From NCBI GenBank assembly GCA_019347915.1, contig JAHWKL010000002.1, forward strand, positions 2,425 to 66,424: DNA of 64,000 nucleotides, written 5' to 3'. Below are positions 17,601-41,600 of the stretch, piece after piece. Below the pieces are notes generated by a model that was given only the letters and a program-made list of their open reading frames with translations, was not told the DNA's origin and ran no database searches. Made by a program: the position numbers and the translations under genes. The stretch's first letter is position 1; each line of letters starts with the position of its first letter. This DNA is from Actinomycetota bacterium (lineage in GTDB: Bacteria > Actinomycetota > Acidimicrobiia > Acidimicrobiales > CADCSY01).

Positions 17601-20600
17601 ATTGCCGCTGCCGAAGGAGAGCTCGCCGGTCAGGTACATCTGGAACGTCGGCGTCGCCGACGCCTCGATGCTGAGGAAGAACCCGCCCTGGACCCGCAGC
17701 AGCTCGGTGGTGGTGCCCGGCACCGACACGATCGCCTGGCCCACCAGCTCGATGGCGAAGCTGTACGGGTTCAGCGTGAACGTGCGGACCAGGTCGGTGC
17801 CGCCGGCGCCGAGGCCCCGCAGTGTGAGGGTCTCGACCTTGGTCTGCGCCGTGAGGTTCACCTGCAGCGTGCCCTTTGCGAACAGCTTCAGGCCGTAGGG
17901 CTCCAGCGCCGAGAAGTTGGTCTCGAGGGTGGCCACGCCCCAGAACTGCGGGATCTCCGAGAGGCCGTCGCCCATGTCCAGCACGAACCGGCCGGCGGTG
18001 GCCCCGACGGTGCCGAGCTTGATGATGGACAGCTGGCCGGCGAAGGTCAGGGTGAACAGCCGCCGGGCCGAGTCGATCTCCAGGATGACCTCAGCCTTCA
18101 GGTCGAGGAGGGGCTCGTCCAGCCCGGGAGCCTGCAGCAGGATGCCGCCGGAGAGCTCGATGAAGAAGGAGGTGCCCTGGGTGATGAGCTTGAACGAGCC
18201 CGACCCGGCGGCGGCGCGGTTGCCGGCGGAGTCGTTCCAGGCGCCGGCCACGAACGCCACGTTCACGGTGCCGGCGGTGAGCGTGCCGGTGTAGATGTAG
18301 CGGAAGGTCGTGGCGTCGATCCGGTGGACCGAGACGAACGACAGCGCCTCGCTGCCGGCGCCGGTGAGGACCAGCTGGCCGCCGGCGAGGATGCTGGCCA
18401 CGTCGACGGTGGTGCCCGGCACCGGCGTGAACACCACGTCGAGCCACGTGCGGGGGCCGACGGTCGACTCGTCGACCGACGACTCGACGGTGGCGGCACT
18501 GGCGAACACTGCGGTCCACGCCGTGCCGCCGGTGTCGGCCCAGCTCCCGTCGATGAACGACACGACGAGGCTGCCCCCCGTGTGCCCGGTGAAGAAGTAC
18601 CGGTACGTACCGGTCGCAGCGTCGACGAGCACCGGCACGCCGAGCACCGCCAGCTCGACCCCCGTCGAGGTGGTGATGGTGATCTCGGCGCCGGCGTCGA
18701 GCACCGTGGCGGCGTCCACCGCAGACCCGTCGAACGAGGCGAAGGTGACGTCGACGTGGCCCCGGCCGTTGAAGGCGTCGGTGCTGAGGACCCCGACCGG
18801 GTTCTTCAGTGCTGCGATCGGGACGGCAACGTCGAACGACTCGCTCTCGCTGTGGTTGCGCTGTTCGCCGGTGTCGGCGAAGGAGCCCGCCACAAACGTG
18901 ATGCTGTAGCGGCCGACCGAGAGCGTGGCGTCGAAGCCGTAGCGGTAGGTGTCGCTCAGGCCCACCCGGACCGGTGCCGACAGCGGGATGAGGTTGCCGG
19001 CGGCGTCGCGCAGGTAGATCTCGTCGCCGTCGATGGTGGCGTGGTCGATGGCGAAGCCGGAGGAAGGGCTGAAGCGGATCTCGATGTAGGCCCGCCCGTT
19101 GAGCAGGTCGCGGCCGATGGCGGCGCCGGCGAGCGGGACGACGGTCTCGGGCGTGTCGTCGTCGGCCGGGATGGTGGTCACGACGTCGGCGGCGGCGCCG
19201 GTGACGAGGAACGACTGCGTCACGCTGAGGCCAACAGGGGGCCCGCGGATCGGGTTGTCGCCCAGCTCGTCGATCTGGATGACCACGTCGACCGGGCCGG
19301 CCACGAACGAGCCCTGGAGCAGGTAGCGGTAGGTGGTGCCACCGAGGTGGATGGGGTTGCTTCCGGAGGGCACCGTGACCGTCGATCCACCGAAGCCGCC
19401 GATGGTGATCACCACGTCGTTGATCGTGCCCAGGTCGAGGATGCTGCCCGCGGCGGGGACGAAGGTCACGTCGATGAACGTCTGATCGACGGTCGGCACG
19501 GTCACCGGCACCGCTCCGGGCGGGCCCGGCTGCGTGCCGGTGTCGTCCTCGGCCGTCCAACTGGTGCTGCTGGCGGCGAGCGACACCGTGACGTCGAGGT
19601 CGGCGGCGCCGGCGGTCTCGACGATCACCGGGACCAGGAACCGGTTGGTGTCCCCGATCTGGGTGACCGGGCGGGTCTCGTCCAGGGTGACGACCCACCC
19701 CGATCCGAAGACGAGCTGGAGGCCAGGGTGGCTCGCTTCGGCGTCGACGAACCCGATGCCGCCGTAGATGGTCCTCGCCGCCTTCTCGGTGGGCAGCGGC
19801 ACCCCGCTCAGCGTGAGCACCGAGTTGCCGCCGCCCGAGATGCCGGCGACGGTCCAGGTCCCCGCCAGCCCACCTATGAGCACGACCTGCCCAACCCGGA
19901 AGCCCTGCGCGACCCAGTCGACGGGACCGGTCACCGTGCCGCCGCTCCCGGTCGAGGCCAAGGTGAACGCGGCCGACACCACGAGGGCGTCCGTCACCGA
20001 GTCGGGGTCGAGCTCGAAGCCGGCGGGCACGCCGTTGCTCTCGGCCGACGGGAAGGTGACGGTGACGGTGCCCGGCGTGTCGCCGGCGGCGATCGTGCCG
20101 CCGGAGACGGCGCCGGTGACGAAGTCGCCGATCAGCGACCAGCTGCGGGCGATGAAGGTGAGGGTCACCGTGTCGACCGGCGAGGCGAAGCTGCCAGTGA
20201 GCCAGAACAGGAAGCTGAGCGAGCCGTCCACCGTGCCCGGCGTCCCCGAGATCAGCGTCGGCGCCCGGGACGAGTCCAGCTGGACCGAGCTCAGGCCCGG
20301 CCCGGACAGGACGAACTCCGGCTGGAGGTCGGTGATCGACGCCAGGTCGAGGGCGTAGCCCGTCGGCGGTGTGAAGCTGACCTCGATCCAGCCCCGACCG
20401 TTCAGCACGTTCACGTCGATGCTGGAGCCCGGCGTCGGGTCACTGATCACGCCGGTGGCGGCCACCACGGTGAAGCTCAGCGTGGCGGCGGTGTTCCCGG
20501 CGCCGGGCGTGGTGCCGGCCTCGCTGGTCACGTCGGCGTTCTCGAACGTGCCGGCCGGGAAGTCGAGCTGGACGACCCCCATGTCGACGGCGCCGGCACC

Positions 20601-23600
20601 GAGGTCGTAGCGGAACATGCTGACGCCCTCGAGGCTGCTGGCGGCGGCGAGCAGCTCGCCGTCGGTCGGGTTGCCGCCGAGGTCCTCGACGGACAGGACG
20701 ACCACCTCGGTCTCGGTCGTCTCCACCGGCGGTGTGTAGCGGTACACGACCTTCCGGCTGGCGCCGCTACCCACCACCTGGAGCGGGACGGCCTTCAGGC
20801 CGTCGGCGGTCTGCACCAGGACCAGCGGCACGGGCGACCCGCCGACGGTCCGGCTGGTGCCGTTGATGGTCAGGGCGAACTCGCCGCCGGGGTCGAGGAT
20901 CGAGAGATGGTCCAGGCTCGCTCCCGACGGTGCCGTGAACACGACGTCGAGGTAGGGGTTGCCGCTTGCCGGGTTCACCGCGCCGACGTCGATGGTCCCG
21001 CCGTTGGTGACCCCACCGCCGAGGCCGGCGGTGGGCGCCGTGGACGCCGCCGCCGGGTCGCCGGCGTCGACGACGTCGAAGATGACCTCCTCGCCGGACG
21101 AGTTCCGGAAGCCCATCTTCAGCTTGCCGTAGATGGACAGCAGGCGGACCTGGTCGGGGATGTCGGCGAGGAAGAGGATGACGACGTCGCCGGTGGCGAC
21201 CCGTGACAGGTCGGCGTAGAGGCGGCCGGAGATCGAGATGTTGTTGGCGGCGAAGTTCAGCGTGCCGCTGACGAGGATCTTGCCGTCGGTGGAGATCTTC
21301 ACGAGCACGACGCCGTTGAACACGGCCTCCGAGGTGTAGATCGAGTAGATCTTGGCCGACCCGGTGATGACCATCGGTGACGTGAAGGCGGCGAGGAAGC
21401 CGTCGCCGGCGTTCCCGGCGGCGACGGCGGCGGCCTGGCGGGCGACCTGCTGCTGCAGGGACGCCAGCCACTGGTCCGCCGTCTGGGCGGTGGGCAGCGC
21501 GAACGCCGACGACCGGAGGGCGAAGGGGTCGTCGATGGATGGCAGCGTCTTGAAGAACTCGACGCCGGCGGCGAAGTCGTTGATGGTCAGGCCGGAGATG
21601 GGCTCGAGGAGGATGCCGCCGGGGACCTCGACGTTGATGAACACCTGGAGCGGGCCGAGCTCGGACAGGCCGAGGCGGATGGTGAAGCCGGCCATGCCGG
21701 CCATCGAGAACCCGCCCTGGAGGCCGAGGTAGAAGAGCCGCTGGTGCACCGGCGTGGTGTTGTCGAACGTGCCGATGACGTTGTAGTTGCTGTCCAGCTT
21801 CAGGATGCCGCCGATCAGGCCGGCGTCGATCTCGCCGCCGAACATCGAGCCCTTCACCTGCACGGCGATGGCATCGATGCCGATGATGGGGAACTTGCCC
21901 TGAGCCAGCAGCAACGGCTGGATGCGCACCCCGCGGATGGAGCCGCTGAACTCGAGGCCCTCGAGGCCCTGGATGGCGGTGACCGAGGCCGACAGCGTGA
22001 GGACGAAGTCCTCGGGCGCGCTCTCGATGTCGGCCCACTGGATGCCGATCTCGTCGATGCGGACGGGCAGGAACGATGGCCACTGGAACGAGTCGCCGGT
22101 CGCCGATCCGACCGAGAGGAAGACCCCGAACCCGGGCCGGGTCTGGAAGGTGCCGTCACCCAGGAACTGGAAGTTGCGGGCCTGGCCGCTGAGCGCCAGC
22201 GAACCGATGTTCACGGTGGCGCCGATCGACTGGAACGACAGCATCACGTCGGTCGTGCCGGCGGCGCCGGTGTCGAGACGGAGGTCGCGCGCCCGCAGGG
22301 TGACGTACGTGCCGAGCTCGAGCTCGAGCGTGTCGATGGTGAGCTGGAAGGCGTCGACCCTGCCCTGGCTGAAGGTGAGGGCGATGCGGAACGCCTCGGT
22401 GTCGGGCGTGCCGTCGGGGCGCTTGTCGTCGGCCGTCTGCCGGTCGAGCAGCGTGGCCGAGAAGGCCTTCCCCGGGAAGAGCTTGGCCCCGCCGGTGGCG
22501 ATGTAGACGTTGCCGGTGAAGGCGCCGAAGGCGTCCCCGGCGCCGATGGTGACGGTCAGGCCGGAGATGCCGATCCGGAGGTCGTCGAGCTCCAGGATGC
22601 CGGCGAAGGAGACCTTCTCGTCCGTGGTGCTCGTGGTCAGGCCGTTCCCCGGCTGCGTGGGTGGGAGGCCGTAGGCCAGCTCGACGGTGCCGAGGCTGAA
22701 GCCGTTGCCCCGCACCACGAGGCCCGGGATGATGCCGGGCGACAGCTCGTCGTCGTTGGTGAGCGGCTGGCCCAGGTCGTTGGTGGCGATGTTCGACCGG
22801 TCGGACGGGTCGTACGGCCGGATGGTGCCGGTGACCCCGAAGCTCGGGAAGGTGATCGTGGCGCTGTTGACCTTGACCAGCTCCTGGTCGACCGGGGCGA
22901 GCGGGTCGTAGGAGACGACGATGCCGCCGGCGACCAGGTCGGCGACGCCGGGGATGTGGGCCCCCAGCGATGCGGCTCGCAGGCCCCACTTGCCCGTGGG
23001 CTCCACCCAGAAGTTGCCGCTGAGGAGCCCGAAGACGTCGACGGCGAGGTCGAAGGTGCCGAGGATCCCGATCAGGTCGACCGTCACCCCGCTGGCCGTC
23101 TGCGCGGTTTCGCCGGCGCTCGGGTTCGACGGCGTCCCGCCGAAGGCGAGGCTGGCACGGTCGACGCCCACGGCGATGGTGAGCACGACCATGCCGTCGT
23201 CGTAGCCGAAGTCGGCCAAACCGATGCTCGGGCCCTGGAGCGACAGCGGTCCGAGAGCGATGGCGCCGCCGGTGGTCGCCGCCCCGGGCGCCGAGGCGTC
23301 GATGGTGAAGGCGGCGGTCAGGTCCTGGACGTTGGCGTTGTCGTCGCTCGTCCCGTCCGTCGCACCCTCGCTGAACCACGTGCCGTCGAAGAGGACGTTG
23401 ACGGCGCCGGGACCGAACATGGCGGTGGCGTTGGCGGCGTCGGCGTCCTCGAGGAAGTAGCGGTAGGTGACGGTGGTGGCGGTGTCGGCCCGGCCACTGA
23501 TGAGCAGCGGCACCCCGATGATGGTCGGCCGGTCGCTGACCCGGAGGAGGTCGAGGACGCCGGTACCGGTGAGCTTGAACGGTGCGGTGGCGACCGCGAG

Positions 23601-26600
23601 CGACGACTTCTTGATCGGGGTGCCGTCGAGGCTGGTGTAGGTGATGTCGAGGTAGCGCTGGGCGTTGATCTGCGCCGCGGTGATCGCTCCACCGTTGGTC
23701 GGGTTGGCCAGGGTGGCGATCGGGCCCGGCTTCGGATGGGGGTTCGTCTCCGTCGGCGTGACGAGGAAGAACCGTTCCTCCTCGACCATCGACGTGGAGC
23801 CGCCCAGGTCGCTGAAGCCGCCGGCGAGGAACCGGACGGTGACCACGCCAGACGTCGGCATGTCGCCGGTGACCGCGTAGCGCCAGGTGTTCGCAACCGC
23901 CGTCGGCACGGTGGCGACGGTGAAGCCGACGGCGGAGCCGTTGACCAGGATCTCGATCTCGGCGCCGGGGTCGGTGATGGTCTCGGGACGGAGACCGACA
24001 CCGTTGACGTCGTTGAAGACCACGTCGACGTACCCGGGGAAGGACGCCGGGGTGATGGTCGTGTTGCCAAGCGGTGCCGCCAGGTCGGCCGTCGGGAACA
24101 GCGTGGGCTTGGCCGGGTCGGCGGTCGGCGCCTCGCTTCCCTGCGGGGGGAAGAGGTCGAACCCGTCGACGCGGAAGTTGTTGAGGCGGAAGCCGGTCAG
24201 GGGCGAGATGGTGAAGGACCCGAAGCCGGCGAGGCGGGCGATGTCGGTGTCACCGATGGTGATCAGCACCGCCGCCTGGGCCATCGTGACGTCGAGCGTG
24301 CCGTTGGGCTGGCGGGTCAGGCCCAGCGTGCCGGTGAGCTGGAAGACGCCGGCAACGGCGATGACGACGTTGCTGGCCACGAACGAGAACCGCCCGCCGG
24401 CGAGCGCCGTTGCGTGGTTCGGCACCGTGATGGAACTGGTGGACGTGTTGACCTCGAAGGTCACGTCGCCGGACACGGCGAGGCCGTCGAGCCCGACGAA
24501 GGCCAGCGTGCCGGTGGCCCGGAGGGCGTAGCCGGTACCCGTGCCGGGGGTCTGGAACCCGACGGACGCCCCGGTGATGCGGACGCCGATGGCGTCGGGG
24601 TTGAGGTCACCGGTGCTGAGCCATCCGGGGCCCTTGCCGATGAAGATCTCCAGGTTGCTGCCGCTGAAGGTGCCGCCGCCGACGGCGAAGTCGCCGCGGA
24701 TCTCGAGGATGCCGCCGAAGTCGAAGTCGAGGTTCTGGATCCGGAAGAAGAAGGTCGGTGATTCGGCGAGGTCGAGGACGACCTCCGTGTCCCCCACGTC
24801 GATGGTCTGGTTCACCTGCACGCCGGTGGTGTTGATGGAGAAGCCGACGTTGGCGTCGAGCGGGAAGCCGGTGGCTGCTGTGACCACCCGCCCGGAGAAC
24901 AGGCCGGCGACGCCGCCCGAGGTGGTCTTGGGACCGGTGGAGGTCCTGTCCTCCGTCGTGTAGGCCCCGGGCGGGAAGATGACCACGGCACCCTGGATGC
25001 TCCCGAGGCCGGGGCTGTCGTCTCCGACCTCGTCGGCCGCCAGCGACCCGTTGGCCAGGGCGATGCGGGTGACCTGTGAGCCGGTGGGACCGACCCGCTC
25101 GAAGGCGACGTCGGCGCGGACGTCGACACCGGCGATGGTCAGAACGACGTCCTCGGCCGCGACCCGCAGGTACGGGCCCTTGGGCAGGGCGAGCACCCGG
25201 ACGTTGGGGACGATCGGGGGACGGTTGCCGTTGGCGTTCCACGTGACCGTGTAGCCCCCGGTCACCGCCACCACCGTGACGTTGTCGCCGGAGCCGTACA
25301 GCGCCTCGATGGCGGCGTCGACCGTGGCGGCGTCGGCACCGACGACCTCGATGGCGTGCGAGATCTCGTGGGCGTCGATCTTCCCGTTGCCGTTCACGTC
25401 GAGGGCGAGGGTGAAGGTGCCGGCGGTGACGCCGACGGAGACCGTCTGCACCTCGGCGGCGCTGGCCGACCCCTGGGTGTCGGTGACCACGTCCACGCCG
25501 GCGAACTGGATGGTCTCGTTCACGGGGACGGCCAGGTTGTTCACCTGGAGGGTCAGGCGGGCGTCGAAGGAGATGGGAAGGTTCTTCAGCTCGACGTTGC
25601 CGGTGATCTCGCCGGCGACGCCGGCCGGGGTGAGGACGAAGGCGCCGGCGCCGTCCGTCAGGTGCAAGCCGACGTCGTCGGTGTCGCCGGGATCGTTGGC
25701 ATCGCCGAGGAACAGCTCCACCTCGGTGAAGGCCACCCGCACCACCTTGGTGCCGGCGGCCGTCGTGCGCTGTTCGAACACCACCACGGCCTGGAGCTGC
25801 TGGCCCATGACGGTGACGCTGATGGGCGAGCCGAGGGAGCCGGCCTGGATCCGCAGGTAGGGCCCGGCGGGCAGCGTGGCGGTGGCGGGCGTCTGCTCCG
25901 TCGTGATGTAGTCGACCGTCTGCTGCGCCGTGGTGTTGTTGATCTGGACGGCGGTGGCACCGCTGAGCGAGAAGGTGCTGGTGAGCGCCGGGAGCGTGAG
26001 GGTGGCCGGGATGTTCGCCGCCACCCCCTGGGGCGTGATCTTGATGGAGCCGGTCGGGATGTGGACCGGGACGAACGTCGTGGTGCCGTTGCCCAGGGCC
26101 AGGGTGACGTCGGTCAGCTCGATGGTGACGGTCTGGGTCGACGGGTCCTTGCGGAAGGCGAAGCCGCCGGTGAGCCGCTGACCGGCCACCTCGAGGGTCA
26201 CACCGGTCCCGCTGACCTCGAGCCCGGGCTGGATGACGTCGTCTCCGACGGTCCGTGCCGTGGTGAGGGTGTTGATGGCGATGCTGAACGTGCCGGACAG
26301 CACGACACCGGGGATGTCCACGGCGACGGTGGCGGTCAGGCGACCGGCGACGCCGCCGGCGGTCGTGGCGGTGGCGCCGACCATCACGAGCTCACCCGAG
26401 CCGTCGGTGACGAGCACGATGTCCCGCTCGGGGGTGCCGATGCGCAGGCTGACGTTGGCGAAGGCGACCCGCAGGTCGTACACCGGCGTCGCCGGCGTCA
26501 GGATGGAGCCGTCGGCGGCGAGCCGGGTGCGGCGCTCGACCGAGAGGTCGGCGGTGACGCGCTGATCGGCCATCACGAGCGACAGGCCCGTGACCGAGAC

Positions 26601-29600
26601 CTTGACGTAGGGCCCGACCGGCAAGGTGAGGGTGGTGGTGGTCCCGCCGCCGACGAACTGCTCGTTCACGGCGAGCGGCATCACCTTGGCGCCGACCGTC
26701 TGCTGCAGCTGGTTGATCTCCACGGTGACCGTGGCGCTCGCCGAGCCGAACGTCCCGCCGAGGAGGAGGCTGGCCGTGCCGCTGATGCGGCCGGCGAAGC
26801 CGTTCGGCGTGATGAGCAGGAAGGCCGACCCGTCGCTGACGTGCACGCCGATGTCGTCGGCGTCACCGGGTTCACCGGGTGCGCCGACGAAGAGCTTCAG
26901 CTGCGACACGCCGATCCGCACGATCTGCTGGTCGTCGGTGGTGTCGAGGACGCCGTCGGCGCCGGCGCTTTGGACCTGCTCGAACAGGAACACGCCCTGG
27001 ATGCCCTGGGCGAAGGCGGTGACGCTCGCCAGCGTGGTGGAGTCGCCGAGCTGGAGCCGCACGAACCGCCCGGCGGGCAGGTCGAGGCCGAGCGTCGTGT
27101 CGACGACGGCGGTCGGGGTGGTGTTGATCTGGAGGCGGACGGCGAGCGAGCCGAGCGTGAGGGCCAGGTCGTCGAGCCCGACGAGGGAGATCGTCCCGCC
27201 CACGTCGGCCGCCACCCCGGTCGGCTGCAACAGCAGGCTGCCCATCCCGCCGGTGATCTTGACGCCCCGGTCGTCAGTCGTGTCGGTCAGCGTGGCCCCG
27301 TCGTCGCCGAGGAACAGCTCGCCGTCGGAGATCGACACCTTGACGATGCGGGTGGTGCCGGTGGTGACCTGCTCGAAGGAGAACGTCCCCGACAGCCGTT
27401 GCCCGCCGATGGCGAGGCTGACGCCGGTCCCCCGCAGGCGCAGGTACGGGCTGGGCCCGGCGGTGTCGAGCTCGAGGGCCAGCGTGCCGGACAATCCGAC
27501 GCCGGGGACATGGAGGGCGACCGTGCCCGACAGGCTGCCGGAGATCCCCGCAGCGGCGATCGTCAGGTTGCCGGCACCGTTGGTCAGGGTCACGAGGTCG
27601 GTGGTGCCGGTGCCCAGGCGCAGGGTGATGGCCGACAGCACGAGCCTGGTCGTGGCGGTCGGGGCGGATCCGACCTGTTCGAGGGCGATGTTGCCGCTGA
27701 GCGTCTGGCCGAGGACGGCCAGTTGGACGTTGTTGCCCGAGACCCGCAGGAAGGGACCGGCAGGCAGGTCCAGCGAGACGGTGGTGCCGGCCAGGGCGAC
27801 CGACTCGGTCACCTGCCGGGAGGTGCGGTTGAGGGCCAGGCCGAAGTCGCCGGCGAGCGCCACGCCGGTCGGGAGCACCGAACCGAGGTTGACGGCGCCC
27901 TGCAGGGTGCCGGCCAGGCCGTCAGGTGCGAGGACGAGGATGCCCCCCACGCCAGTGAGCAGCCCGGTGGTCCCGCCGAGCGACAGGCTGCCGCCGGTCA
28001 CCGCGATCACCGTGCGCTTCTGGCCGGCGGCGTTGGTGGCCGTCTGGATGGTGAACGACGCCTGCAGCGTGGGGCCGCCGGTGCCGAAGGTGAGGGTGAC
28101 GTTCTCGCCGAGGAAGCGCACGTAGGGACCGGCCGGCAGCCGGGTTCCGTCGGGCAGGACGACGGCGGTGGTGGCGTTGTTGACCTGGAGCGTGAACGTG
28201 CCGGTGATGCCGACACCGGCACCGAACGAGAGCGCGGATGCGACGGTGAGCTCGCCGGCCAGACCGGCCGGCGCCACCGCCAGCTCACCGTTGAGCGTGA
28301 CCGTCCCCAGCCCCTCGCCGAGGTCGAGGAGCAGGTTGGTGACGATGATCTCGACGGTGCGGGAGCCGTCGGCGGCCGTCTCCTGCTCGAAGGAGACGTC
28401 GCCGGTGAGCGAGATGCCGGCGACGGTCAGGGTCACGGCCGTGCCGGTGATCTTCAGGTACGGGCCGGCGGGGAGGTCGACGGTCAGGACGCCGATGCCG
28501 CGGGAGGTTCCGAAGGCGGCGCCCGTGCCCTTGCGCCAGGTCGCGGCGCCGGTGCCGGCCGAGGTCACGAGGTCGGCGACGGTGTCGCCGTCGAGGTCGC
28601 CGACCCCGATGGCCACCACCGTCCCGATCCCCAACGCCGAGGCGGCGGAGAAGCCGGCCCATGTCTCGTCACCCGGGTTGAGGGCGACGTCGACGCCGGT
28701 ACCGGTGGTGCGGACGAGGTCGAGGGTGCCGTTGCCGTCGACGTCGGCGAGGACCACCGCCGTGCTGCCGGAGGTGCCCGGCGCGGTGGCCGCGGTGAAG
28801 GTCCCGTCGCCGGCGCCGAGGTGCAGGCTGTCCGCGGTACCCGAGAGGCCGGAGCCGACGACGAGGTCGAGGTGGCCGTCGTCGTCGACGTCACCGAGGG
28901 CGATGACCGCGGCGGCAGAGCCGACACCGGCGAGCACCGAGCCCGTCCCGACGCCGTTCCACTCCCCCGTGCCGCCGTCGACGCCGCTGTTCAGGTACCG
29001 GGTGACGTCGGAGCCGGCCGCCACCAGCACGTCGCCGAAGCCGTCGCCGTCGAGGTCGCCGACGGCGATCGACCGGGCCGAGGATCCGAGGTCGGGGCCG
29101 CTGAGGACCTTGAACAGGCCGGTGCCGTCGTTGAGGTAGACGAGCGTGGTGGCGCCGGAGCGGCCGACGACGAGGTCGGGCCGGGTGTCGCCGTCGAGGT
29201 CGTCCAGCGCCACAGCGGTCACGCTGTCGGCGTCGGGCCCGACGAGGATGGCCGGCACGACGTCGAAGGGGTCGCCCACGCCGTCGTTGAGGTAGAGGAG
29301 CACACCGGCGGCGGTGCCGAGGACGAGGTCGGGGCGGGTGTCGCCGTTGACGTCGGCGACGGCGGCCGAGGTGGTGGTGCCGGGCTGCAGGCCGAACCCG
29401 ATGGTGTCGAGCACCGCGCCGTCGGTGGTCGGGCGGGTGTTGACGGCCAGCGCCAGCGTGCCGGCGAGCGAGGCGCCCGGGATGGTGATGGCGACGGTGC
29501 CGGACAGCGTGCCCGCCAGTCCTCCGACCTTCGGCCCGGTGCCGTCGGGGTCGCCCAGGAGGAAGAAGCCGGTGCCACCGGTCAGGGTGACGAGGCGGGT

Positions 29601-32600
29601 GGTGCCGTCACCGAAGGAGGCGCTCACGTTGCGGGCGGCGACCCGGACCACCGAGGCGCCACCGGGGATGGCCGCCTGGTCGAAGACGAACTCGCCGGAG
29701 AGCCGCTGCCCGGCGAACACGAGGCCGGCGCTGCCCTCGACCCGGGCGTACGGGCCGGCGGGCAGGTCCAGCGTGATCGTCTCGCCGTCGAAGACGAACG
29801 ACTCGCGGACCCCGGCAGTGGTCGTGTTGACGGCCACCGTGAAGGTGCCGTCGAAGTCCACTCCACCGCCGGGGACGGAGAAGGTGACGGTGCCGCCGAT
29901 CCGGCCGGCGAGCCCCGCGCCGGTGAGGACGAAGAACCCGGTGCCGGCGCTCAGGGTGACGACGCCGCCGCCGAGCGACAGCGAGACGTCGGTGGCCGCC
30001 ACCCGGATCGTCTTCGCGGCCACGGTGCCGGGCGGGGCCGAGGGGCTGACCGTGCCGGTGACCTGCTCGAAGGCGAAGACGCCCGAGATGCTCTGGCCGG
30101 CGAGGGTGATGGACGCCGGTGCCGCCGTGGTGCCGAGCTGGACGCGGATCGAGCTCGCCGGAACCGTCACCGTGCCGGCCGTCTGCTCGGCGGAGGTGGT
30201 GTTGATCCGCAGCTCCACCGGCAGCAGCGTGGCCTGGAGGCCGGGGAAGTCGAAGTCGGCGCTGGCACTGACCACGCCGTAGACGCCCGCCGCCGTGATG
30301 GTGAGGTCGCCCGACGAGATGGTCACGACCACCGGGGCGGCGCCGCCGCCCACCGGGTCCCCGAGCGAGAGGACGATCTCGCCGTCGGCGAACGCCGAGC
30401 TGCCGAGCTTGACCTCGAGCGTGGTACCGGACTGCGCAAAGGAGAACGCACCGACGAGGCTGATCCCACCCATCCGGAAGGTGAGGTTCTCGGCGCCCAG
30501 CAGGGCGTAGGGGATCTTGGGTGTCGGCGGGTCCGGATCGGCCGGCGTCGCCGCGGGCACCTGGAACTCGGTGTCGACGAACTGCTCCGTCAGCGTCTCG
30601 TTGTAGCGCACGTGGATGGTGCCGCTGAGCTGGAGGCCGGGGATGCCCAGCAGCTGCACCGTGCCGCTGACGCTGAACGCACGGCCCGTGGCGTCGGAGA
30701 ACGCCATGCCGCTGGCGTTGGTGATGAGCAGCCCGCGTGCGGTGGGGTTGAGGTCGTCGCCTTGCAGGAAGGCCGGGCCCTGGCCGAGGAAGACGGTGAC
30801 GTCCGTGACGGTGACCACGCCGCCGGAGAAGTCGACCGTCCCCAGGATCTCGACGAAGTCGCCGAGCTTGACGACACCGGAACCGGAGAAGGCCAGGAAC
30901 GGGCCCGGGAAGTCGGGGCGATCGGCGACTTCTTTGGAGGAGAACACGATCGGGATGGTGACGCCGGCCACCTCGATGATCTCGTCCACCGCCGAGGTGG
31001 AGCTGTTGAACCGCACGGCGATGCTGACGTCGGCGTTGAAGCCGCCGCCGAGGACGTTGTCGGAGCCGACCGCGGCCGTGCCCGAGAAGGTGCCGGCCAC
31101 GCCGCCGCCGGTGCCGCCGAGGATGATGAACGCCCCCTGGCCGCCGGTGACCCCGATGTCGGTGGTCAGGACCACCGACACGCCGGTGAAGGCGAGCTTG
31201 GTGATCGCCACCGGCTGGTTCAGGAACAGCGTCGCCTGACCGGCGGCGCCGCCGAGCACCAAGTCGAGATCGGCATCGTCGTCGACGTTGACCAGCACCA
31301 CGTCGGTGGCGCTCGCCCCGCTCGTCGTCATGTCGGTGCCGTTGCGGAAGCCGAGCCAGGTCGTGGCATCCCGGCCCCGGTTGAGGAACAGCACCGGGTT
31401 GCCGGTGGTGCCGAGGACAACGTCGAGACGACCGTCGTTGTCGACGTCACCCACCGCGACGGCTCGCCCGGCCGGCGTCGCCGGCGAGGCTGCCAGGTCG
31501 ACACCGGCGTCCAGTCCCGCCCACGCACCGGAGGTGAACCCGCGGTTGACGTGGACGAGCGCCGGCCCGCCGTCGACGGCCACGACCACGTCGGCGAAGC
31601 CGTCGCCGGTGACGTCGCCCGTTGCCACTCCACGCACATCGGCCGTGTTGGCGACGGGCGTGGCAGTGGCGAACGCCTGCCAGACGCCGCCGTCATCGGC
31701 GCCGCGGTTGACGTAGACGCTGTGGTCGACGCCGGTGTTGGCGACGAACAGGTCCAGCAGGTCGTCGTTGTTCAGATCGACGAGGGCGAGGCCGGTCGTG
31801 GCGCCGTTGGCCAGGAGGTGGTCGGCGGTGGCCGGGAAGCCGTTCCACGGGTCGGCCTCGCCGGCCTTGCCGCCGTTGAGGAAGAGCTTGGTGTCAGCGC
31901 CCGTCCCCGTGGCCCCCACGACGATGTCGGCGAACCCGTCACCGTCGACGTCAGCCACCGCCACCGAGGTGGCATCGGGCGTGGTGAGGGTGGCGCCCGT
32001 GTCGAACCCGAGCCATCCGCCGGTGACCGGGTCGTTGCCGAGGTTGCGGGCCACCGCGCTGGTGCCGTTGCGGATCACGACGGCGTCGAGCAGCCCGTCG
32101 GCGTCGAGGTCGCCGAGGGCGACGGCGACCGTGGTGCCCGCGCCCTCGGTCACGGTGTCGGCCGAGGTGGAGGCGAACGTCGCCGGCGCGGTGCCCAGGA
32201 ACAGCGCGGCGCCGGTGGACGAACCGATGAGCACGTCGAGGCGGCCGTCGCCGTTGACATCCCCGATGGCCACCGGGCTGGCGCCGGTCGTCGCCTCGCC
32301 CAGGGCGGTGCCGGAGCCGGGGAAGCCGGGTCGCGTGCTCTGGGACAAGGCGAACGAGCCGCTGAACGAGAAGCCGCCCACCCCCAGGGTCCCCTCCACG
32401 GCGACGTGGAGGAACGGCGGTGCCGGCCCCGTGTTCAGCTGCAAGGAGGCGGTGCCGCCGGCGAGGGTGATGCCGGCGGGCAAGGTGAAGATGCTGATGT
32501 CGCCGGTGCCGTCGTTGTAGACGAGGTCGCCGGAGAAGGTGGCGGCGACGCCGCCGGGCGTGACGACCAGTGCCCCCTTCCAGTCGTGCGCCGGCGTGAT

Positions 32601-35600
32601 GTCGACGAAGCCGCCGACCTGCAGCGTGAGGTCGGCCACGGCGATGCTGATCTCGGGGTCGGGGCCGGAGCGGCGCTCGATGACGACGCTGCCGCCGATC
32701 GACTGCCCCGCCACGCTGAGCGTGCCGGAACCGGTGATGCGCAGCAGGTGGCTGGCCAGCTCCACCGAGCCGACGGTCTGCTGGACCTCGGTGGTGTTGA
32801 CCTGCAGGTCGAACGAGCCGGTGAGGGACACGGCCGGGATGTCGAAGGCCACGTTGGCGCTGATCTCGCCGAAGAGGCCACCGGTGACGAGCACGACCGT
32901 GCCGTTGATGTCGGTGGCCCGCACCAGCGGGGCCGACGGCGGTCCGAGGGCGAGGCTGCCGTTGGTGATCTCCACCTGGAGCGCCGAGGCCGTCTTGGTG
33001 ACGGTGACGTCGCCGGCGAGCCTCTGCCCGGCGATGGTGAGGATCACGCCGGTGCCCTTGACCCGGAGCGGGACGCCGGCATCGAGGACGAGCGACGTGG
33101 AGACGCCACCCACTACGAAGGTCTCGTTCACCGACGCTCCGGTCGAGTTGAGCTCGAGGGCGAGGGTGCCGGAGAGGGTGACGCCGGGGACGTGGTGGAG
33201 GGCGACGGTGCCGCTCACCCGGGCGGCCATGCCGGTGCCGCCGGTCAGGAACAGCGCCTCGCCGTCGGTGATGGTGAGGAAGTTGCGGGTGCCGTCACCG
33301 AGGGCGATCTGGACGTCGGTGGCGGCGATGCGTGCCCTCGTGCCGCTGGCGGTGGTGACCTGCTCGATGGTGATGTCGGCTCGGATGCGCTGGCCGGCCA
33401 CCACCAGCACGATGTCCTCGCCGGCGATGCGCAGGTACGGGCCCGCCGGCACGGCGAGCGTCACCGTGGTCGTCCCCACGACGAGGTCCTGGGCGACCGC
33501 GGCGGTGGTGGTGTTGAGCTGGACCTGCAGTGCGCCCGTCAGCGAGAAGGCGCCGCCGACGTCGAGCACGATGGCGCCCGAGAGCGACCCGGCGACACCG
33601 CTCGGGGTGATGACGAACAGGCCGGCGCCGTCGGTGAAGCCGACGGTCGGGTCGGCAGTGGTGCCCAGCACGACCAGGTCGACGTCGGCGAGCCCCAGGC
33701 GCACCACCTGTGCGCCGGCGGCGGTCGTGACCTGCTCGAACACGACGTCGCCGGTCAGGCTCTGCCCGAGCACGCTGATGGTGAGCCCGGTGCCGGACAC
33801 CTGCAGGTACGGGCCCGCCGGCAGGGCGACGCCGTCGACCGTGACCGGCGCCCCCGTGGAGTTCACCACCATGGCCAAGGAGCCGGAGACGGCGACGCCG
33901 GGGACGCTGAGCGACATGCCCACGGAGAACCGGCCGGCCAGCCCCGCCGAGGTGAGGACGAGCTCGGCCGTGGTGGTCGGCGTCTGCGTCACCGTGACGA
34001 TCGGCGCGGCCGCCGTCCCGCCGAGGTGCAGTGACACGTTGGTGGCCCCGATGCGGACCACGGGCGCACCTGCGGCGTCGCTCGAGCGGGTGATGACCAC
34101 GTCGCCACGCAGTGACTGGCCGAGGATGCCGAGGTCGACGGCGGTGCCGGTGATGCGCAGGAACGGCCCGGCCGGAAGGTTGATCGTCGTCGGCGCGCCG
34201 CCGGCCACGGCGAAGGTCTCGTTGACGTGGGCGGCAGTGGTGTTGACCTCGACGGTGAGCGCGCCGGACAGCGACACCTGCGGGACGGCCAACGCCATGG
34301 TGCCGGTGATGCGCCCGACCAGGCCGGTGGAGGTGAGCAGCAGCAGCGCGGTGCCGTTGCGGAGCGTCAGGATGGGCGATGCGCCGCCGAGGTCGAGCGT
34401 GACGTTGGTGATCGCCAAGCGGACGGCGGACGTGTCGGCGTCCGCCGCCGTGCCCCCGGGCACGCCGTCGGCCCCGTACGAGGTCACCTTGGTGGCGGCC
34501 ACGTCGCCGGTGAGGCGCTGCCCGAGCACGGTGAGCACCATGCCGGTGCCCACGAACCGGAGGTACGGACCGGCCGGGAGGACGACCGACAGCGTGGTGC
34601 CGCCGACGCTGGCCGACGTGTTCACCGCGCCGGACGTGGTGTTGACGACCAGCGACAGGCTGCCGGTCAGGCTGGCGCCTGCGGGCAGGGTCACCGCCAT
34701 CCTGCCGCCGACCCGACCGGCGACCCCGGTGCCGGTGACGACCAGCACGCCCGACCCGCCGGTGATGCGCACACCGTTGGAGCCGGCCACGGTCGCCAGG
34801 TCGATCGACGACAGGCCGATCGTCGTGACCGTCGTCCCGCCCGGGCCGGCGGCGCGCTCGATGCGCACGTCGCCGGTGAGGGTGTGACCGAGGATGGTGA
34901 TGGTCAGCCCGGTTCCCTCCACCCGGAGGTAGGGGCCGGCGGGGACGTCGAGCACCAGGACCGTGTCGCCGAGGTCGACCGAGCGCTCGGCGGGTGCGAC
35001 GCCGGAGTTCAGCGCCACGCTGAACGTGCCGCCGAACACCACGCCGGGCACGGTGACCGTCACCGTGCCGGCGATGCTCCCGGCGACACCGGTCGGGCCG
35101 GCGACGAGGATGCCGGTCCCGCCGGTCACCGAGACGGCGGAGCCGAGTGAGACCTGCACGCCGCTGGCGGCGAGGACGACGTCGCCGGTGGCGGTCTTGT
35201 CGAAGGCGAACGTGCCTTGCAGCGACTGGCCGGCGACCTGGAGCGTGGCGCCGGCAGCGACGAGTTGGGTGACGACGGTGCCGTCGGCGAAGGTGACCGC
35301 CACGCCGGGCCCGCTGCTCCCGGCGATCTCGAGGGTCTCGTTCACCGCCGTGCCGGTGGTGTTCACCCGTGCGGTCACCGTGCCGGTGAGCGCCACGCCG
35401 GCGACGCCGACCAGCCTGACCGATCCCGTGGCGACCAGGGCGTAGGTGGAGCCGACCTTGACCAGGCCGATGCGGGCGTCGGAGAGCAGCACGCCCGACG
35501 CCAGCGGGTTGACCTCGCCGGTGCTGAGCCGGGCCGGCCCTCGACCCAGGAAGATGGTGAGGCCCTCCCCGGCGAAGACCTGCGCCGGCTGGCCGCCGAT

Positions 35601-38600
35601 CGTCGTGTCGCTGAAGGCGATGTCGCCCTCGATGGTGACGAAGTCGGCGATGGTGAGGCTGAGGTTGGACAGCGACACCTCGAACACGTCGCCGGTGGCG
35701 AACTTCACGACGAGCGTGCGGCCGCCGACCTCGATCGACGTGTTGATGGCCCCGGCGGTGCCTGCGGGACGGGTGTTGACCCGCAGGAGGATGTCGGCGC
35801 CGGCAGAGACCGGTCCGGCGGCGATGTCGGCCTTGCCGGAGAGGTAGCCGGCGAGGCCGTCGGCGCCGAGGACGAACGCGCCATCCCCCTCGGTGAGGCG
35901 GGCGCCGTCCCCGCCCCCCCCGACGGTGACGTCGACCTCGACGTCGGTGGCGGCCACGACGGTCACCGAGGCACCGGCGCCGTCGGTCGCCTGCCGGAAG
36001 GCGAAGTGCCCGGCGAGCACCGGCCCGCCGGATCCAAGCGTGAGGTCGGCCCCGGTGACGTGCACCTGCACGTAAGGGCCGGCGGGCAGGGTCAGGACGC
36101 TGGTGGTGCCGCCCAGCGAGAAGTCTTCGGTCACCGGCGCCGTACCGGTGTTGATGTCGATCCGGGCGGCGTGGAACGAGAGCGTGATGCCGCCCGGCAG
36201 ATCGAACACCACGTCGGTGAGCGAGAGGCTGCCGGCCACGCCCTGGGGGGTCACGACGAACTGGCCGGAGGCCTCGTTCACCGTGACGACGTCGTCCGCC
36301 TCGGTACCGATGACGAGCAGCGGCGTTCCCGTCACGCTGGCCACCGTCACCTTGACGACGGACCAGCCGGCGGCGTTGGTGGACTGCTCGAAGGTGAAGT
36401 CGCCGTGGAGGCTCTGCCCGGCGATCTCGACGACCGCACCGCTGAGGGTGACGGCGAGCCGGCGGGTCGCGGGTCGGGTGTCGACCTCCACCGATGCACC
36501 GGTCGACACGGAGACGTCCGGGATGGCGAAGGCCAGATCGCCGGAGAACGAGCCATGGGCGCCGCCGGGTGTCACGGTCAGGTCGGCGGAGGCGTCGGTG
36601 ACGACGACCAGCCCGCCGCCGAGGGACAGCGACGCATCGTCGACGAGGAGATGGACGACGCCGCTGGTGGAGTCGACCACGACGTCGCCGGTGATCGGCT
36701 GGCCGAGGACGGTCAGGGACAGCGCCGTCCCCGAGAGCCGGACCATCGTCGCTCCGCTCGGTCCGGTCGGGAGCGCCAGCAGCACGTCGTGGCCGCCGAG
36801 CGAGATGACCTCGTTGACGTCGGCGCCCGTCGAGTTCACCTGCAGCTCCAGCGTCCCGGAGAAGCTCACGCCCGGGACGGCGAGCGTGACCGTGCCCCCG
36901 ACTCGGGCCGCCACTCCCCCGGTGGCCACCAGGACGACGCCGCGGCCGTCGGTGAGCGACACGACCGGGAGGTCCCCGCTACTCAGGGCGAAGCGCAGGT
37001 TGTCGACCACCACCACGAGGACGGGCTCCCCGCCCGAGGTGACCCGCCGCTCCACCGCCACGTCGGCGGCCAGGACGTGGTCGCCCACAGTGAACAGGGC
37101 GCCGACCGCCCCGACCCGCAGGTACGGGCCGGCGGGCAGGTCGCCGGCGGCGGCCGTGCCGGTGTTGACCTCGACCGACACGTTTCCCACCGACAGGCCC
37201 GGGATGGCGAGGCTGGCGACGTCGGCGGCCAGGCGGCCGGCGACCCCTCCGGCGCCCATGACGACCGACCCGGCGACGTTCTCCAGCGACAGGAAGGTCG
37301 TGGTGCCGTCGCCCAGGTCCAGCGTGCCGCCGGTGATCGAGATGCGGGTGACCGGAGCGCCGCTCTCGGTGCGGCGCTCGACGTCCAGCGTGGCCGCGGT
37401 GACCGTCTGCCCGGCCACGGTCAGATCGATGGCGGTGCCGGTGAGCCGGAGGTAGGGACCGGCCGCCAGGGTGGCGTCGTTGTCGGTGCCGGCGGCGTCG
37501 AAGGTCACCTCCGCTGCGGTGGTGTTGACGACGATGCGGAGGTCACCGGAGAGGGAGACGCCGGGCAGGGCGGCCACCACGGTGCCGGAGACGACGCCGG
37601 CGACGCCGGCACTGGACAGCTGGATCTCGCCCCCACCGCCGGTGAGCGAGGCGAGGTCGGTCGACCCGTCCCGCAGCACCAGCTCGACGTTGGTGGCGGT
37701 CACCGTCATGCCGGCCGCGGTGTCGACGAAGGTGAAGTCGCCGCTGAAGCTCTGCCCGGCGACGGCGGCCGTGAGCCCGACGCCGGTCACCGAGACGAAC
37801 GGGGTGGTGCCGTCCGACGTCTCGTCCGGCGTGCCGCTGGTGCCGTCGGTGAAGGCCACCACCACGTCACCGCCCTCGAAGGCGATCGTCTGGTTCACCG
37901 CACCCGTGGTCTCGTTGACCCGGGCCCGAATCTGGCCGCCGATGGTGACGCCGGCGAAGCCGACGAGCTCGACCGTGCCCCGCACGTCGAGGGCGTACAG
38001 GCCACCGACCTCAACGAACCCGACGGTGGCGTCCGTGACGAGCAGGCCTCGAGCGAGCGGGTTCCGCGATCCGTCCTCGAGGAACGCCGGTCCGTCGCCC
38101 ACGAACACCGTGAGGTTGGTGCCGGCGAACTGGCCCGGGCCGGCGCTGAAGTCGCCCTCGATGGTGACGACGTCGGCGATGGTGAGCGACAGGCCGCTGA
38201 TCGACACCGAGAAGGCGGCGGCACCGGATTCGAAGGTGATGGAGAGGTCCTCGCCGCCGACGGTGACGACCTCGTCGATGGCGGCGCCGGTGGTGTTGAC
38301 CCTGACCGAGACGCTGGCACCAGGGGTGAGCCCGGGGATCGACGCGTCGATGTCGCCGGAGAGGTATCCGGCGATGCCGTGGCCGGCGCCCGTCCCGCCG
38401 GGCGTGCCCTTCAGGACGAGGACGCCGTCGGCGTCGGTGATCGTGCTGGCGCCGTCGACGATAGTCACCGTGCCGTTGCGAACGGCCAGGATGGTGCTGG
38501 GCGTCGTGCCCGGAGCGGCCGACCGCTGGAAGACGAAGGTGCCGGCGATCGTCCCCAGCGTGCCGACGGGGAGCGGGGTGCCGGTCGGGACGACGATGAC

Positions 38601-41600
38601 GACTCGCACGTAGGGCCCGGCGGGGAGGGTGACGGGAGGCGAGGTGAGGGCGACGGCGGAGGGGCGGGTGTTGACCTGCACGCTGACGCCGGCGGACGCC
38701 AGGGTGAGACCACCCGGGAGGTCGAACGACGCCGTGGCCGAGAAGGCACCGGCGACGCCGTCGGCGGCGATCACCAGCGAGCCGTCGGCGTCGTCGATGG
38801 TGACGTACCCGCCGACGGAGACGTCGACGTCGGTCAGCGTGACCGTCACGACCGGCGTGCCGTCGGCGGCGAGCGTCCGCTCGAACCAGACCTCGCCGGT
38901 GAGCGCCTGGCCGGCGACGGTGAGGGTGACGGCCGTTCCTCCGACGAGCACCTCGCCGGCGGCAGTGTCGATGTCGGCCGACACCGAGCCGGTCAGCGAG
39001 ACGCCCGGGACGGCCACGGAGACGCTGCCGCTGAAGGTACCGGCGAGGCCGGTCGGCGAGATGGTCAGCGAGGCGGCGGCTCCGGTGATGCGGGCGAGCC
39101 CGCCCGCCAGGACCAGCGATGCGTCGGTCACCGTGACCGACACGGCGGTGGCGGCCTTGGTGATCTCGACGTCGCCGGTGAGGCGCTGGCCGAGCACGTC
39201 GACGACCACGCTGGTGCCGGTGAAGCGGAAGAAGGGGCCGCCCTCCACGTCGACGGTGACGCCGGTGCCGTCGACGGTGAAGGTCTCGTCGACGCCGGTG
39301 GTGCCGGTGTTCACCTCGAGGTGGAACCCACCGCTCACCGAGACGCCGGGGACGGTGACCCGGACCGTCCCGCTGATGGCGCCGGCGACCTCGCCGCCGG
39401 AGAAGACGAGCAGCCCGGCGCCATCGGTCAGCCGCACGAGGGGCGACGGGCTGGGAAGGGCGAAGGTGGCGTTGCTGACGGCGACCGTGACGACGTCGCC
39501 GCTCGTGCCGGGCCGCTGCTCGAGGGCGAGGTCGGCGCGCAGGGCCTGTCCGTCGGCGGTGAGCGTGGCGCCGAGGAGGACCACTCGCAGGTACGGCCCC
39601 GCCGGGAGGCCGGCGGTCGCGGTCGGCGCCGTGTTGACGGCGACGCTGACGGCCCCGCTGAGCGAGAGCTGGCCCGGCGACGTGTCGACCGTGGCGGCGA
39701 ACGTGCCGGCGACACCGGCGGCGCTCACGTCCAGGCTGCCAGCGACGCCTGCGAGCACCAGCGTTCCCGGGCCCACGTCGAGGGTGCCGCCGCTCACCGT
39801 GACCCGGGTGATGGCGCCGGCGCCGCTCCCGGAGCGGGCGACGGTGAACGACCCGCTGATCCGCTGACCGGCGACGTTCAGGGCCACGCTCGTCCCGCTG
39901 AGCCCCACGTAGGGGCCGGCCGGCAGCTCCGGCACGGTGCCGAACGGATCCACCGGAGCGCCGGTCGTGTTCACGACCAGCTGGAGGGTGCCGGTCTCCA
40001 GGCTGACGCCGGGGATGTGGAGCTGGACGGTGCCGCTCGCGGCGCCGACCATCCCCGCCGCCGACGACCGCAGGGTCGCCGTGCCTTCGGTGAGCGACGC
40101 CACCGGCGTGCTCGCACCCGAGGGGACGACGTGGAACGCCAGCCCGGTGACGGTGATGTCGAGCGTGCCGTCGGCGGCGCGCACGAAGGTGAACGTGCCG
40201 GTCAGCGACTGGCCGAGCACGCCGAGGGTCAGCGTGCCGCCGATGTCGGTGAACGGCACCGCCGAGCTCCCCTCCTCGCCGGTGGCAAACGTGACCTGCA
40301 CCGGGTCGCCACCGGGGATGGCGATCGACTCGGAGAAGGCGATGCCGAGGCTGTTCACGCGGACCGAGAGCTCGCCGGCGAGCGTCACGCCCGGCACGCC
40401 GATCAGCTGCACCGTCCCGCTCCCCGCCAGCGCGTGGTCGGCGCCGATGCGCACCACGCCGACGGTGGCGCCGGTCACGAGCAGCCCGCGAGCGAGCGGG
40501 TTGAGCGTGCCGTCGGCGAGCCAGGCGGGGCCGACGCCGATGAACAGGCGGAGGCCTCTGCCGGCGAAGACCTCGCCGGTCGTGCCGGTGGCGAAGGTGA
40601 CGTCGCCCTCGAGCGTCACCACGCCCCCGACGTCGAGGGTGACGTCGGTGAGAGCCAGGGAGAAGACGTCGCCCGCCTGTGCCTCGGTGGCGTCGAACCT
40701 CACCTCGACCGTGTGGCCGTCGAGCACGACGGTCTGGATGACCCCGTTCCCCGTGGTGTTGATGCGCAGGAGCGCCTCGGCGTCGAACCCGCTGCCGGCA
40801 CCCGAGCCCGGGGCCCCCGAGAGGAAGCCGGCCACACCGGAACCGGGGAGCACGAGCACGCCGCTCCCGTGGGTGAGCAGCTCGGTGGAGCCGGCGGTGG
40901 CGGTGATGCCGTCGAGCACGACGACGACCAGCGGCACGCCACCCTCACCGACCTGGCGCTCGAAGGCCACCGACCCGGCGAGCGTCCCGACGGTGCCGAG
41001 CGAGAACGTGGTGCTCGCCACCTGCACCCGCACGTAGGGGCCGGCGGGCAGTCCGGCGGCGGCGACGGGCCGGGTGTTGAAGGCGACCGTGACGGCGGCG
41101 TCGGTGACGGTGACGAACCCGGTGGCGTCGAGCTCGGCGGCGAGCGTGCCGGCGACCCCGCTGGCGTCGACGACCAGCGTGCCCGTGCCGCCCTCGACGG
41201 TGAGGGTCTGCGACGAGCCGGCGGCGAGGGAGAGCGCCACGCCGGACGCCGCCACCGAGAGCGCCTGGCCGTTGCGGGTGACGGTGGCCGACGTCGCGGT
41301 GACGCTCTGGCCGGCGGCCACGAGGGTCGCCTCCCCCGACGCCTCGACGTCGACTGAAGCGAGCACCGACGTGGAGCCCAGGGTGACGGCGTCGCCGGTG
41401 CCATTGTAGACGACGTCCCACCCGGTGCCGGTGAGCGCCACCTCGGGGACGCCCGCCAGCGTCACCAACCCGCCGGCGATGCGGAGGGCGACGCCGCCGT
41501 CTCCCTGGAGGAGCAGGTCCAGCGCGGTGCCGGTCACGGAGACCGCGGGCCCGCCGGGCACGGCCAGCACGCCCACCACGCTGGTGGCGTCGAGCACCAG

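Follow-up and report, generated by a model that had tools for sequence, protein, structure and literature searches.

In this work, we analysed a 64,000-nucleotide stretch of an Actinomycetota genome (assembly GCA_019347915.1, contig JAHWKL010000002.1, positions 2,425 to 66,424; hereafter the window), in which a single minus-strand open reading frame (ORF) encloses two FG-GAP/VCBS β-propellers within a long array of β-hairpin modules. Our results support the interpretation that both propellers are nested domain insertions, as a preliminary description of the same sequence had proposed, although the register in which they enter the array had to be corrected, and we therefore regard that description as confirmed in part. 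The nesting is borne out by orthologues that carry two, one or no propellers, by confident AlphaFold2 (AF2) models free of long disordered linkers, and by the calcium-loop motifs of the blades. That a giant surface protein of a bacterium has an FG-GAP/VCBS propeller is no surprise, and guest domains in β-hairpin scaffolds are familiar; the new parts are the unannotated scaffold family and the series of orthologues with two, one and zero propellers.

The propellers and their entry points in the array

Both domains (coordinates in Table 1) belong to the FG-GAP/VCBS superfamily by their profile scores, by tandem repeats with about four AF2 strands each and by predicted Ca2+ loops. The Pfam families FG-GAP_3 (expectation value (E) 3.1e-52, 175.5 bits against a cut-off of 26.9, nine stretches) and FG-GAP (E 4.3e-39, 132.3 bits against 22.1, seven stretches) match in the propeller region only. 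Blades were counted both with a calcium-loop motif scan and with a repeat hidden Markov model (HMM) of our own, each of which gave seven repeats for propeller 1 and six for propeller 2; the preliminary description had arrived at the same numbers, with ranges that agree with the computed boundaries to within about 10-20 nt. The motif Dx[DN]x[DN]xxxD recurs at a spacing of 50-58 residues in propeller 1 (seven copies, residues 4659-4983) and of 48-55 residues in propeller 2 (six copies, residues 5628-5880), so that the putative calcium-binding loops singled out earlier for checking are present, with minor substitutions, in 13/13 blades. The loop is kept blade by blade in orthologues, and blade-specific variants are conserved, such as 'NVD.D.DLD' in blade 7 of the window and of two orthologous loci (L001 and L002).

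The host of the propellers comprises 42 modules of about 106-125 residues, located with an HMM made from the 'LPAGPY...VNT' units of this protein; their consensus is LPAGPYLRV..GQ.L.GD..FE...VNTT.... In AF2, tight turns link six strands of 11-16 residues into a meander in each module, which also has a short hairpin, and the central ~5,700 residues of the protein form a rod-like array of long antiparallel β-hairpins. No match to the modules was found in Pfam, NCBIfam or PDB sequences: a profile of 31 modules gave nothing under E 0.5 against all PDB sequences, and the NCBIfam search returned nothing for either the modules or the N terminus of the giant protein. Searched against 1.84 billion cluster representatives, the module profile recovered 1,671 proteins at E<=1e-3, 497 of them with E<=1e-30; most are pieces of very long proteins. 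The locus draws attention to this unannotated module family, which builds giant actinobacterial proteins.

Propeller 1 occupies the turn that connects strands two and three of its host module. Between the preceding 'LQLNT' strand and the propeller lie 46 residues, which hold a degenerate LPAGPY motif, 'GPAPPFLHV', and two long strands, modelled by AF2 at residues 4608-4619 and 4622-4637, the second of which is FSFSGSFALSQSTRPG; the Ornithinibacter orthologue (L002, also P0001) has a clear 'VPAGPFLRV' where the window has the degenerate form. On the far side, the strand QPVAITKLAFTGVSVV (residues 5007-5022) opens the second half of the host module, and the propeller is flanked by two AF2 strands of 16 residues each. 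Propeller 2 is at the tip of a module's short terminal hairpin, about 610 residues downstream of propeller 1. There, the VNT strand is succeeded by 'AVLDTIGFG', a short strand predicted to pair in register with 'GIGVLTVDL' on the other side of the propeller (AF2 strands at residues 5608-5613 and 5916-5921); these stalk strands match the small hairpin that ends long-type modules, as in '..VNTTTAGVRESFVFDGETITLDLPAGPY' of the preceding module. The preliminary description had both propellers starting right after a VNT or LNT strand, in the place of the LPAGPY segment, which is wrong for each junction: its argument from the insertion register fails in detail, whereas the nested insertion is supported.

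Two observations concern the surroundings of the first entry point. At window positions ~32400-32420 on the minus strand (residues ~4603-4608), between 'LNTG' and 'PAPPFLHV', the window has ~24 residues fewer than L001 and L002 and ~13 fewer than the Microbacterium genes, and the residues lost are the last small hairpin of the preceding module and part of the LPAGPY motif. Further, the turn at module position 38/39, which hosts propeller 1, holds D/G-rich loops of 10-17 residues elsewhere in the array, for example 'YGADGVPGGTAADADTS', in modules at residues ~3925, ~6425 and ~6575 (about positions 34460, 26960 and 26510, minus strand), and is a general hot spot of length variation.

For structure prediction, we supplied AF2 with tailored alignments that combined orthologues with propeller-only homologues and the protein's internal paralogues. 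The two constructs were modelled with a mean predicted local distance difference test (pLDDT) score of 87.4 and a predicted template modelling (pTM) score of 0.77 (construct A, residues 4385-5240), and of 88.0 and 0.79, respectively (construct B, residues 5375-6156). Block-mean pLDDT exceeds 90 over most of propeller 1 and is 84-96 in propeller 2, whose approximately 24 strands are consistent with six four-stranded blades. At the junctions, pLDDT is 74-96 in blocks of ten residues and no disordered linker is predicted; instead of the in-line beads on long linkers that the preliminary description had named as its refutation, long host strands abut each propeller. The high pTM of these multi-domain constructs of ~800 residues suggests a rigid and continuous assembly; the propellers would probably be displayed laterally from the fibre.

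Orthologues with two, one or no propellers

The strongest evidence for nesting comes from comparison among relatives. We scanned one genome per species with a query from the inter-propeller segment (residues 5006-5619); in the window, this segment contains a divergent stretch with little repetition (5097-5240) and, after it, three modules. The 17 loci include an Acidimicrobiales-labelled metagenome-assembled genome (62% identity), Ornithinibacter (61%), Micropruina (52%) and many Microbacterium (~43%), as well as Rhodoglobus and Propionibacteriaceae. Nearly all are one unbroken ORF across the fetched 21-22 kb, and segment-by-segment BLAST shows orthology to be colinear on both sides of both propeller sites. 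Both propellers are present in the window, L001, L002 and L003; propeller 1 only in L004, L005, L007 and L010; and neither in the full-length loci L006, L008, L009, L012, L014 and L016, with no propeller seen either in L011, L013 and L015, which are partial or more divergent.

This presence/absence polymorphism, which the preliminary description had suggested looking for, extends to the joints themselves, where the host strands of propeller-less orthologues are connected by a tight turn. At site 1, such genes read '..GGPSFSGNFLLSRVVASG-VTTIAFSDVTVSL..' (the tight turn is also given as '..FSGNFLLSRVVASG-VTTIAFSDVTVSL..') and propeller-bearing ones '..FLLSRTTTPGV-[~350 aa]-GAPGSVTTIAFSQVTVSL..', so that propeller 1 replaces a hairpin turn of 4-6 residues. 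At site 2, the propeller-less sequence '..GDFSVTLDTT-DPANSS-LAVTGENITITIGG..' passes from the VNT-type strand directly into strand one of the following module, and where the propeller is present, stalk hairpin and propeller have been added together. The locus is a clean natural experiment in domain insertion, in which the same giant gene occurs with two, one or zero propellers, the junctions coincide exactly with a β-hairpin turn, and a long-hairpin scaffold can gain or lose whole domains of 300-350 residues with its register unchanged.

Across the 136 best representatives of the family, propellers occur at two module phases only, after position ~35-38 or ~110-118, and members with both propellers space them by about 600 residues. 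Two fixed phases and this spacing indicate that the sites are ancestral and orthologous, rather than random insertions, and the relatives with one or neither propeller indicate removable accessory heads. Propeller 1 of the window is 47% identical to that of L004, with flanks at 41-46%, and the two propellers are 55-65% identical to those of L001, with flanks at 50-65%; diverging at the pace of its flanks, propeller 1 appears to be an old, vertically inherited part. A neighbour-joining tree, built without bootstrap from the inter-propeller segment, shows propeller-1-bearing and propeller-less Microbacterium genes interleaved (L007 with L006, and L005 with L008), which implies either that precise deletions happened several times independently or that genes recombined at the hairpin junction. 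The most economical account is that an old insertion was later lost precisely and repeatedly, or was exchanged by recombination. The interleaved orthologues among L004-L016, from Microbacterium and relatives, share 73-80% mutual identity.

The propellers themselves also vary among homologues, several of which are metagenomic sequences with frame-shifted tails that were trimmed before use. Counted by eye, FG-GAP repeats at the propeller-2 site number six or seven, with P0005 and P0014 on one side of this contrast and the window, P0001, P0008 and P0009 on the other; this suggests a gain or loss of blades inside the inserted propeller. Furthermore, an extra element of ~60-70 residues lies within a blade of propeller 1 in P0011, P0006, P0018 and P0014 and of propeller 2 in P0007 and P0026. 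This insertion within an insertion, which the window lacks, carries the motif '..STAGF...G.L.....IGYT.LTATTFT...RG..GT.A..H..G..V', and its only match in Pfam is a faint one to Rcc01698_C (E 0.029).

Structural neighbours and candidate roles

Foldseek lists for the models, searched against the PDB and BFVD, are dominated by propellers. For propeller 1, CRTAC1 ranks first in the PDB (E 4.8e-10) and is also the sole match of phmmer against PDB sequences (E 1e-7), whereas the best superposition is with the seven-bladed ITFG2 (template modelling (TM) score 0.60-0.63, root mean square deviation (r.m.s.d.) 5-6 Å over about 390 columns). Although CRTAC1 and ITFG2 (9etn, 9van) are its closest solved folds, they are eukaryotic and have unrelated domain contexts and functions. 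For propeller 2, Foldseek against the PDB points to the N-acetylglucosamine (GlcNAc) lectin PVL of Psathyrella velutina (E 7e-9, TM 0.46, 20% identity), with TcB-TcC chains and Streptomyces UmbA4 in complex with teichuronic acid (E 1.5e-8) among the other top matches; against seven-bladed targets the TM score is lower, 0.46-0.48, as expected for six blades. Its phmmer matches in the PDB are marginal, with TcdB2 at E 1.2e-3 and YenB at 0.048 over about 150 residues, and weak matches to integrin α4 and αV lie at E 1e-3 to 3e-2. PVL (2bwr/4up4) and UmbA4 (9oee), the best Foldseek matches of this model, resemble it at the level of the fold, but with an identity of just 14-22%. UmbA4 carries a six-bladed calcium-loop propeller lectin of an actinobacterium that binds teichuronic acid (PMC13274773), so that a closed six-bladed form is established for actinobacterial propeller lectins, and propeller 2 presumably closes into a ring as well. 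In UmbA4, however, the propeller is the C-terminal domain of a ~670-residue protein, whereas here it is an insertion in a giant fibre.

Bacterial FG-GAP/VCBS propellers of the integrin type, each blade with a calcium motif, have been catalogued before, with Actinobacteria prominent among their hosts (Chouhan et al. 2011, PMC3192720). Both propellers share with these domains (PF01839/PF13517) repeats of ~50-58 residues, four-stranded blades and DxDxDG-type loops; they differ in being spliced into hairpin turns of another array rather than standing in tandem or at a terminus, and propeller 2 has six repeats instead of the canonical seven. The preliminary description had also likened them to the ligand-binding heads of integrin α, a comparison that holds for the FG-GAP propeller fold, with its Ca2+ loops between strands 1 and 2, and for no other integrin feature. 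In no part of the giant protein did Pfam reveal Integrin_alpha2 or a related family, and where an integrin α subunit, which pairs with a β-subunit, has thigh and calf domains and a transmembrane segment with GFFKR tail, there are array modules on either side of the propellers. Indeed, the relationship is reversed: the integrin propeller hosts an inserted I domain, whereas here the propeller is the guest.

Taken together, these results lead us to favour, with moderate confidence, a reading in which propellers spliced into hairpin turns of the array serve as Ca2+-stabilized accessory heads, most probably for binding glycans or surface polymers. The two chain ends of each propeller would meet in one blade, which would allow it to be plugged into a turn on a two-stranded stalk with the scaffold unbroken, and the domain would then project from the edge of the sheet. 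Outside the cell, the DxDxDG-type loops would bind Ca2+ and stiffen the blades, leaving the upper propeller faces as putative accessory binding heads for glycans or for cell-surface or wall polymers, and the pair would offer two binding sites near the middle of the fibre. By analogy with their structural neighbours, of which the PVL GlcNAc lectin and teichuronic acid-bound UmbA4 are binding modules, the propellers probably have a glycan-binding role; if they are lectins, they would provide an obvious handle for finding the ligands of these giant fibres.

Several points weigh against this reading. The TM scores to PVL-type lectins are modest (0.43-0.46), and the propellers do not stand out from the scaffold as hypervariable, which is a poor fit to a fast-evolving specificity determinant. 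Furthermore, the neighbour-joining tree has no bootstrap support, and propeller-less orthologues also lack the stalk hairpin, so that site 2 coincides with a module boundary. A bolder form of the accessory-head proposal, which we regard as improbable, would make the propellers a losable plug-in lectin cassette mid-way along a surface fibre of roughly 100-200 nm, setting which neighbouring cells or polymers are gripped, perhaps wall teichuronic or teichoic acids, as for the lectins of Umb toxins. Were this true, their repeated precise loss in Microbacterium would adaptively adjust the range of targets, and the bound target would be acted on by the two metzincin-like ends, in what would be a new contact-dependent interaction device of Actinomycetota.

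The propellers could, alternatively, be structural, acting as Ca2+-dependent stiffeners, kinks or self-association nodes rather than as ligand-binding heads. We consider this unlikely, yet worth taking seriously: the calcium loop kept in 13/13 blades is structural in integrins (PMC3192720), the same protein carries RTX calcium repeats, the rate of propeller evolution does not exceed that of the scaffold, and the propellers of UmbA4 mediate oligomerization when bridged by ligand. However, orthologues function without one or both propellers, which means that the scaffold does not need them, and lectins are among the closest solved structures. That they are ordinary in-line domains set between array segments like beads on a string is very improbable, and is already contradicted for propeller 1, which splits a module at HMM position 38/39 whose two halves are joined in orthologues by a turn of 4-6 residues. 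The case for such an arrangement comes from propeller 2, which sits at a module-to-module junction and whose propeller-less orthologues lack the stalk hairpin; its flanking strands nevertheless match the terminal hairpin of long-type modules, no low-confidence linkers are predicted at pTM 0.77-0.79, and only two insertion phases occur across the family.

A propeller or receptor-binding domain inserted in a long scaffold of antiparallel β-hairpin repeats is also seen in TcB and YenB, where the six-bladed TcB propeller lies within the Rhs cocoon (PMC6868009), and in mosquito SGS1, where receptor-binding domains including a propeller are inserted into an Rhs/YD β-sheet scaffold (PMC9935623). This raises the prospect of a Tc-toxin-like device, with the array as shell, the propeller as gate or docking plug as in TcB and YenB, and perhaps metzincin-like cargo. 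TcdB2 and YenB propellers are the best, if marginal, PDB sequence matches of propeller 2 (the E values are those given above), TcB-TcC chains appear in the Foldseek lists of both models, and each end of the protein has an HExxHxxGxxH motif. We nonetheless find it hardly credible. No RHS/YD repeat (RHS_repeat), TcdB or other Tc domain was recognized by Pfam or NCBIfam, the module consensus is without a YD motif, and there is neither a cocoon-sized shell nor a TcC-like autoprotease; superposition on TcB-TcC is poor (TM 0.08-0.24, r.m.s.d. around 30 Å), the array of about 5,700 residues goes far beyond the needs of a cocoon, and some orthologues have no propeller at all. A catalytic role, for example like that of FG-GAP/VCBS polysaccharide lyases or dehydratases, strikes us as equally far-fetched: aldos-2-ulose dehydratase (4a7k) is among the weaker Foldseek matches, but such matches rank low (TM 0.24-0.33), neither Pfam nor NCBIfam recognized a catalytic family, and the propellers are dispensable in orthologues.

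The giant gene and its surroundings

Table 1. Features of the giant gene in window coordinates, all on the minus strand
Feature	Window positions	Residues	Strand	Basis or remark
Giant gene	2499..46154	14,551 in total	-	Counted from likely start M28
Metzincin-like segments	~45080-45245; ~3005-3215	~330-385; ~14340-14410	-	Pfam
Module array, ~42 modules	24243..41342	1632-7331	-	Own HMM; nearly all modules in this span
N-terminal part of split host module	32289..32426	4604-4649	-	Module HMM positions 2-38
Propeller 1, 7 FG-GAP repeats	31221..32288	4650-5005	-	Pfam, motif scan, repeat HMM
C-terminal part of split host module	30948..31220	5006-5096	-	Module HMM from ~39
Inter-propeller segment	29415..30947	5097-5607	-	Used as orthology marker
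Ascending stalk strand before propeller 2, AVLDTIGFGLQ	29382..29414	5608-5618	-	AF2, alignment
Propeller 2, 6 FG-GAP repeats	28521..29381	5619-5905	-	Pfam, motif scan, repeat HMM
Descending stalk strand after propeller 2, ..FGTSRGIGVLTVD	28476..28520	5906-5920	-	AF2, alignment
Next canonical module after propeller 2, begins LPAGPYLKITG	28140..28475	5921-6032	-	
Scattered RTX-type GGxGxD nonapeptides	~4800-17800	~9476-13803	-	Motif positions

The ORF that encloses both propellers spans window positions 2499..46235 (14,578 codons), with a G+C content at third codon positions (GC3) of 0.94. Its mechanical start is a TTG at 46235, and the likelier start is M28, at 46154, after which comes a signal-peptide-like sequence, MDVAATRPSPRGRRLRRATALLAVVSLVVSLLAVVPTSAAEA; the giant protein is secreted. 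From the N terminus, the signal peptide is followed by a metzincin-like motif, the module array with its two propellers, an RTX-rich C-terminal third, a ConA-like region and a second metzincin-like motif. The ORF ranks among the largest bacterial genes, and more than 90% of it is without Pfam or NCBIfam annotation; in complete Microbacterium genomes, orthologues of the giant gene are likewise unbroken over more than 22 kb. An assembly artefact or pseudo-ORF was considered and rejected, given the GC3 of 0.94, the unbroken ORFs of orthologues in complete genomes and an identity of just 28-45% between the modules and a reference module. Long ORFs on the plus strand between 2.6 and 46 kb (for example 25356-34034; up to 2,892 residues, with high GC3) are not genes but by-products of a 71% G+C content and repeat-rich coding.

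The few Pfam matches in the giant protein, besides the FG-GAP families, are to metzincin-like segments, RTX nonapeptides and ConA-like traces. The two metzincin-like HExxHxxGxxH segments, 'HELGHALGLEH' and 'HEVGHVLGLDHD', are similar to each other although they lie at opposite ends of the protein, and each is preceded by 'ADL.G..L......D.DAAG.GW'; the Peptidase_M10 match spans only ~35 residues, which makes a complete protease domain doubtful. HemolysinCabind (E 2.9e-13, seven stretches) identifies RTX nonapeptides of the GGxGxDxUx type, whereas the RTX-type matches in NCBIfam score under their cut-offs. Near residues 13,920-14,100 there are weak matches to ConA-like, Laminin_G_3 and 3-keto-disaccharide-hydrolase families. 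RTX nonapeptides occur here in a protein with an N-terminal signal peptide, from a lineage that is of Gram-positive type, judging from its relatives.

Giant genes are reportedly frequent in Actinobacteriota, and giant proteins of Omnitrophota have been described as 'antiparallel beta-helix' filaments (bioRxiv 10.1101/2023.11.21.568195). The present protein shares with giant repeat proteins and RTX adhesins a length above 10,000 residues, a long β-rich repeat rod and RTX calcium repeats, and differs from them in its unannotated module family. It also departs from the type-1 secretion architecture of RTX adhesins: the N terminus is signal-peptide-like, and the adjacent ABC genes resemble sugar uptake with a solute-binding protein. 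In the scanned parts of the giant protein, we detected neither transmembrane nor SecA-like domains.

No functional partner for the giant gene was found among the flanking genes, which encode a glyoxalase, a Na+/H+ exchanger, a sugar-type ABC importer, a hydrolase, a MOSC protein and a β-helix protein. The last of these is a right-handed β-helix (Beta_helix/NosD-like) gene at window positions 1297-2628 on the plus strand, convergent with the giant ORF and overlapping its 3' end by ~130 nt.

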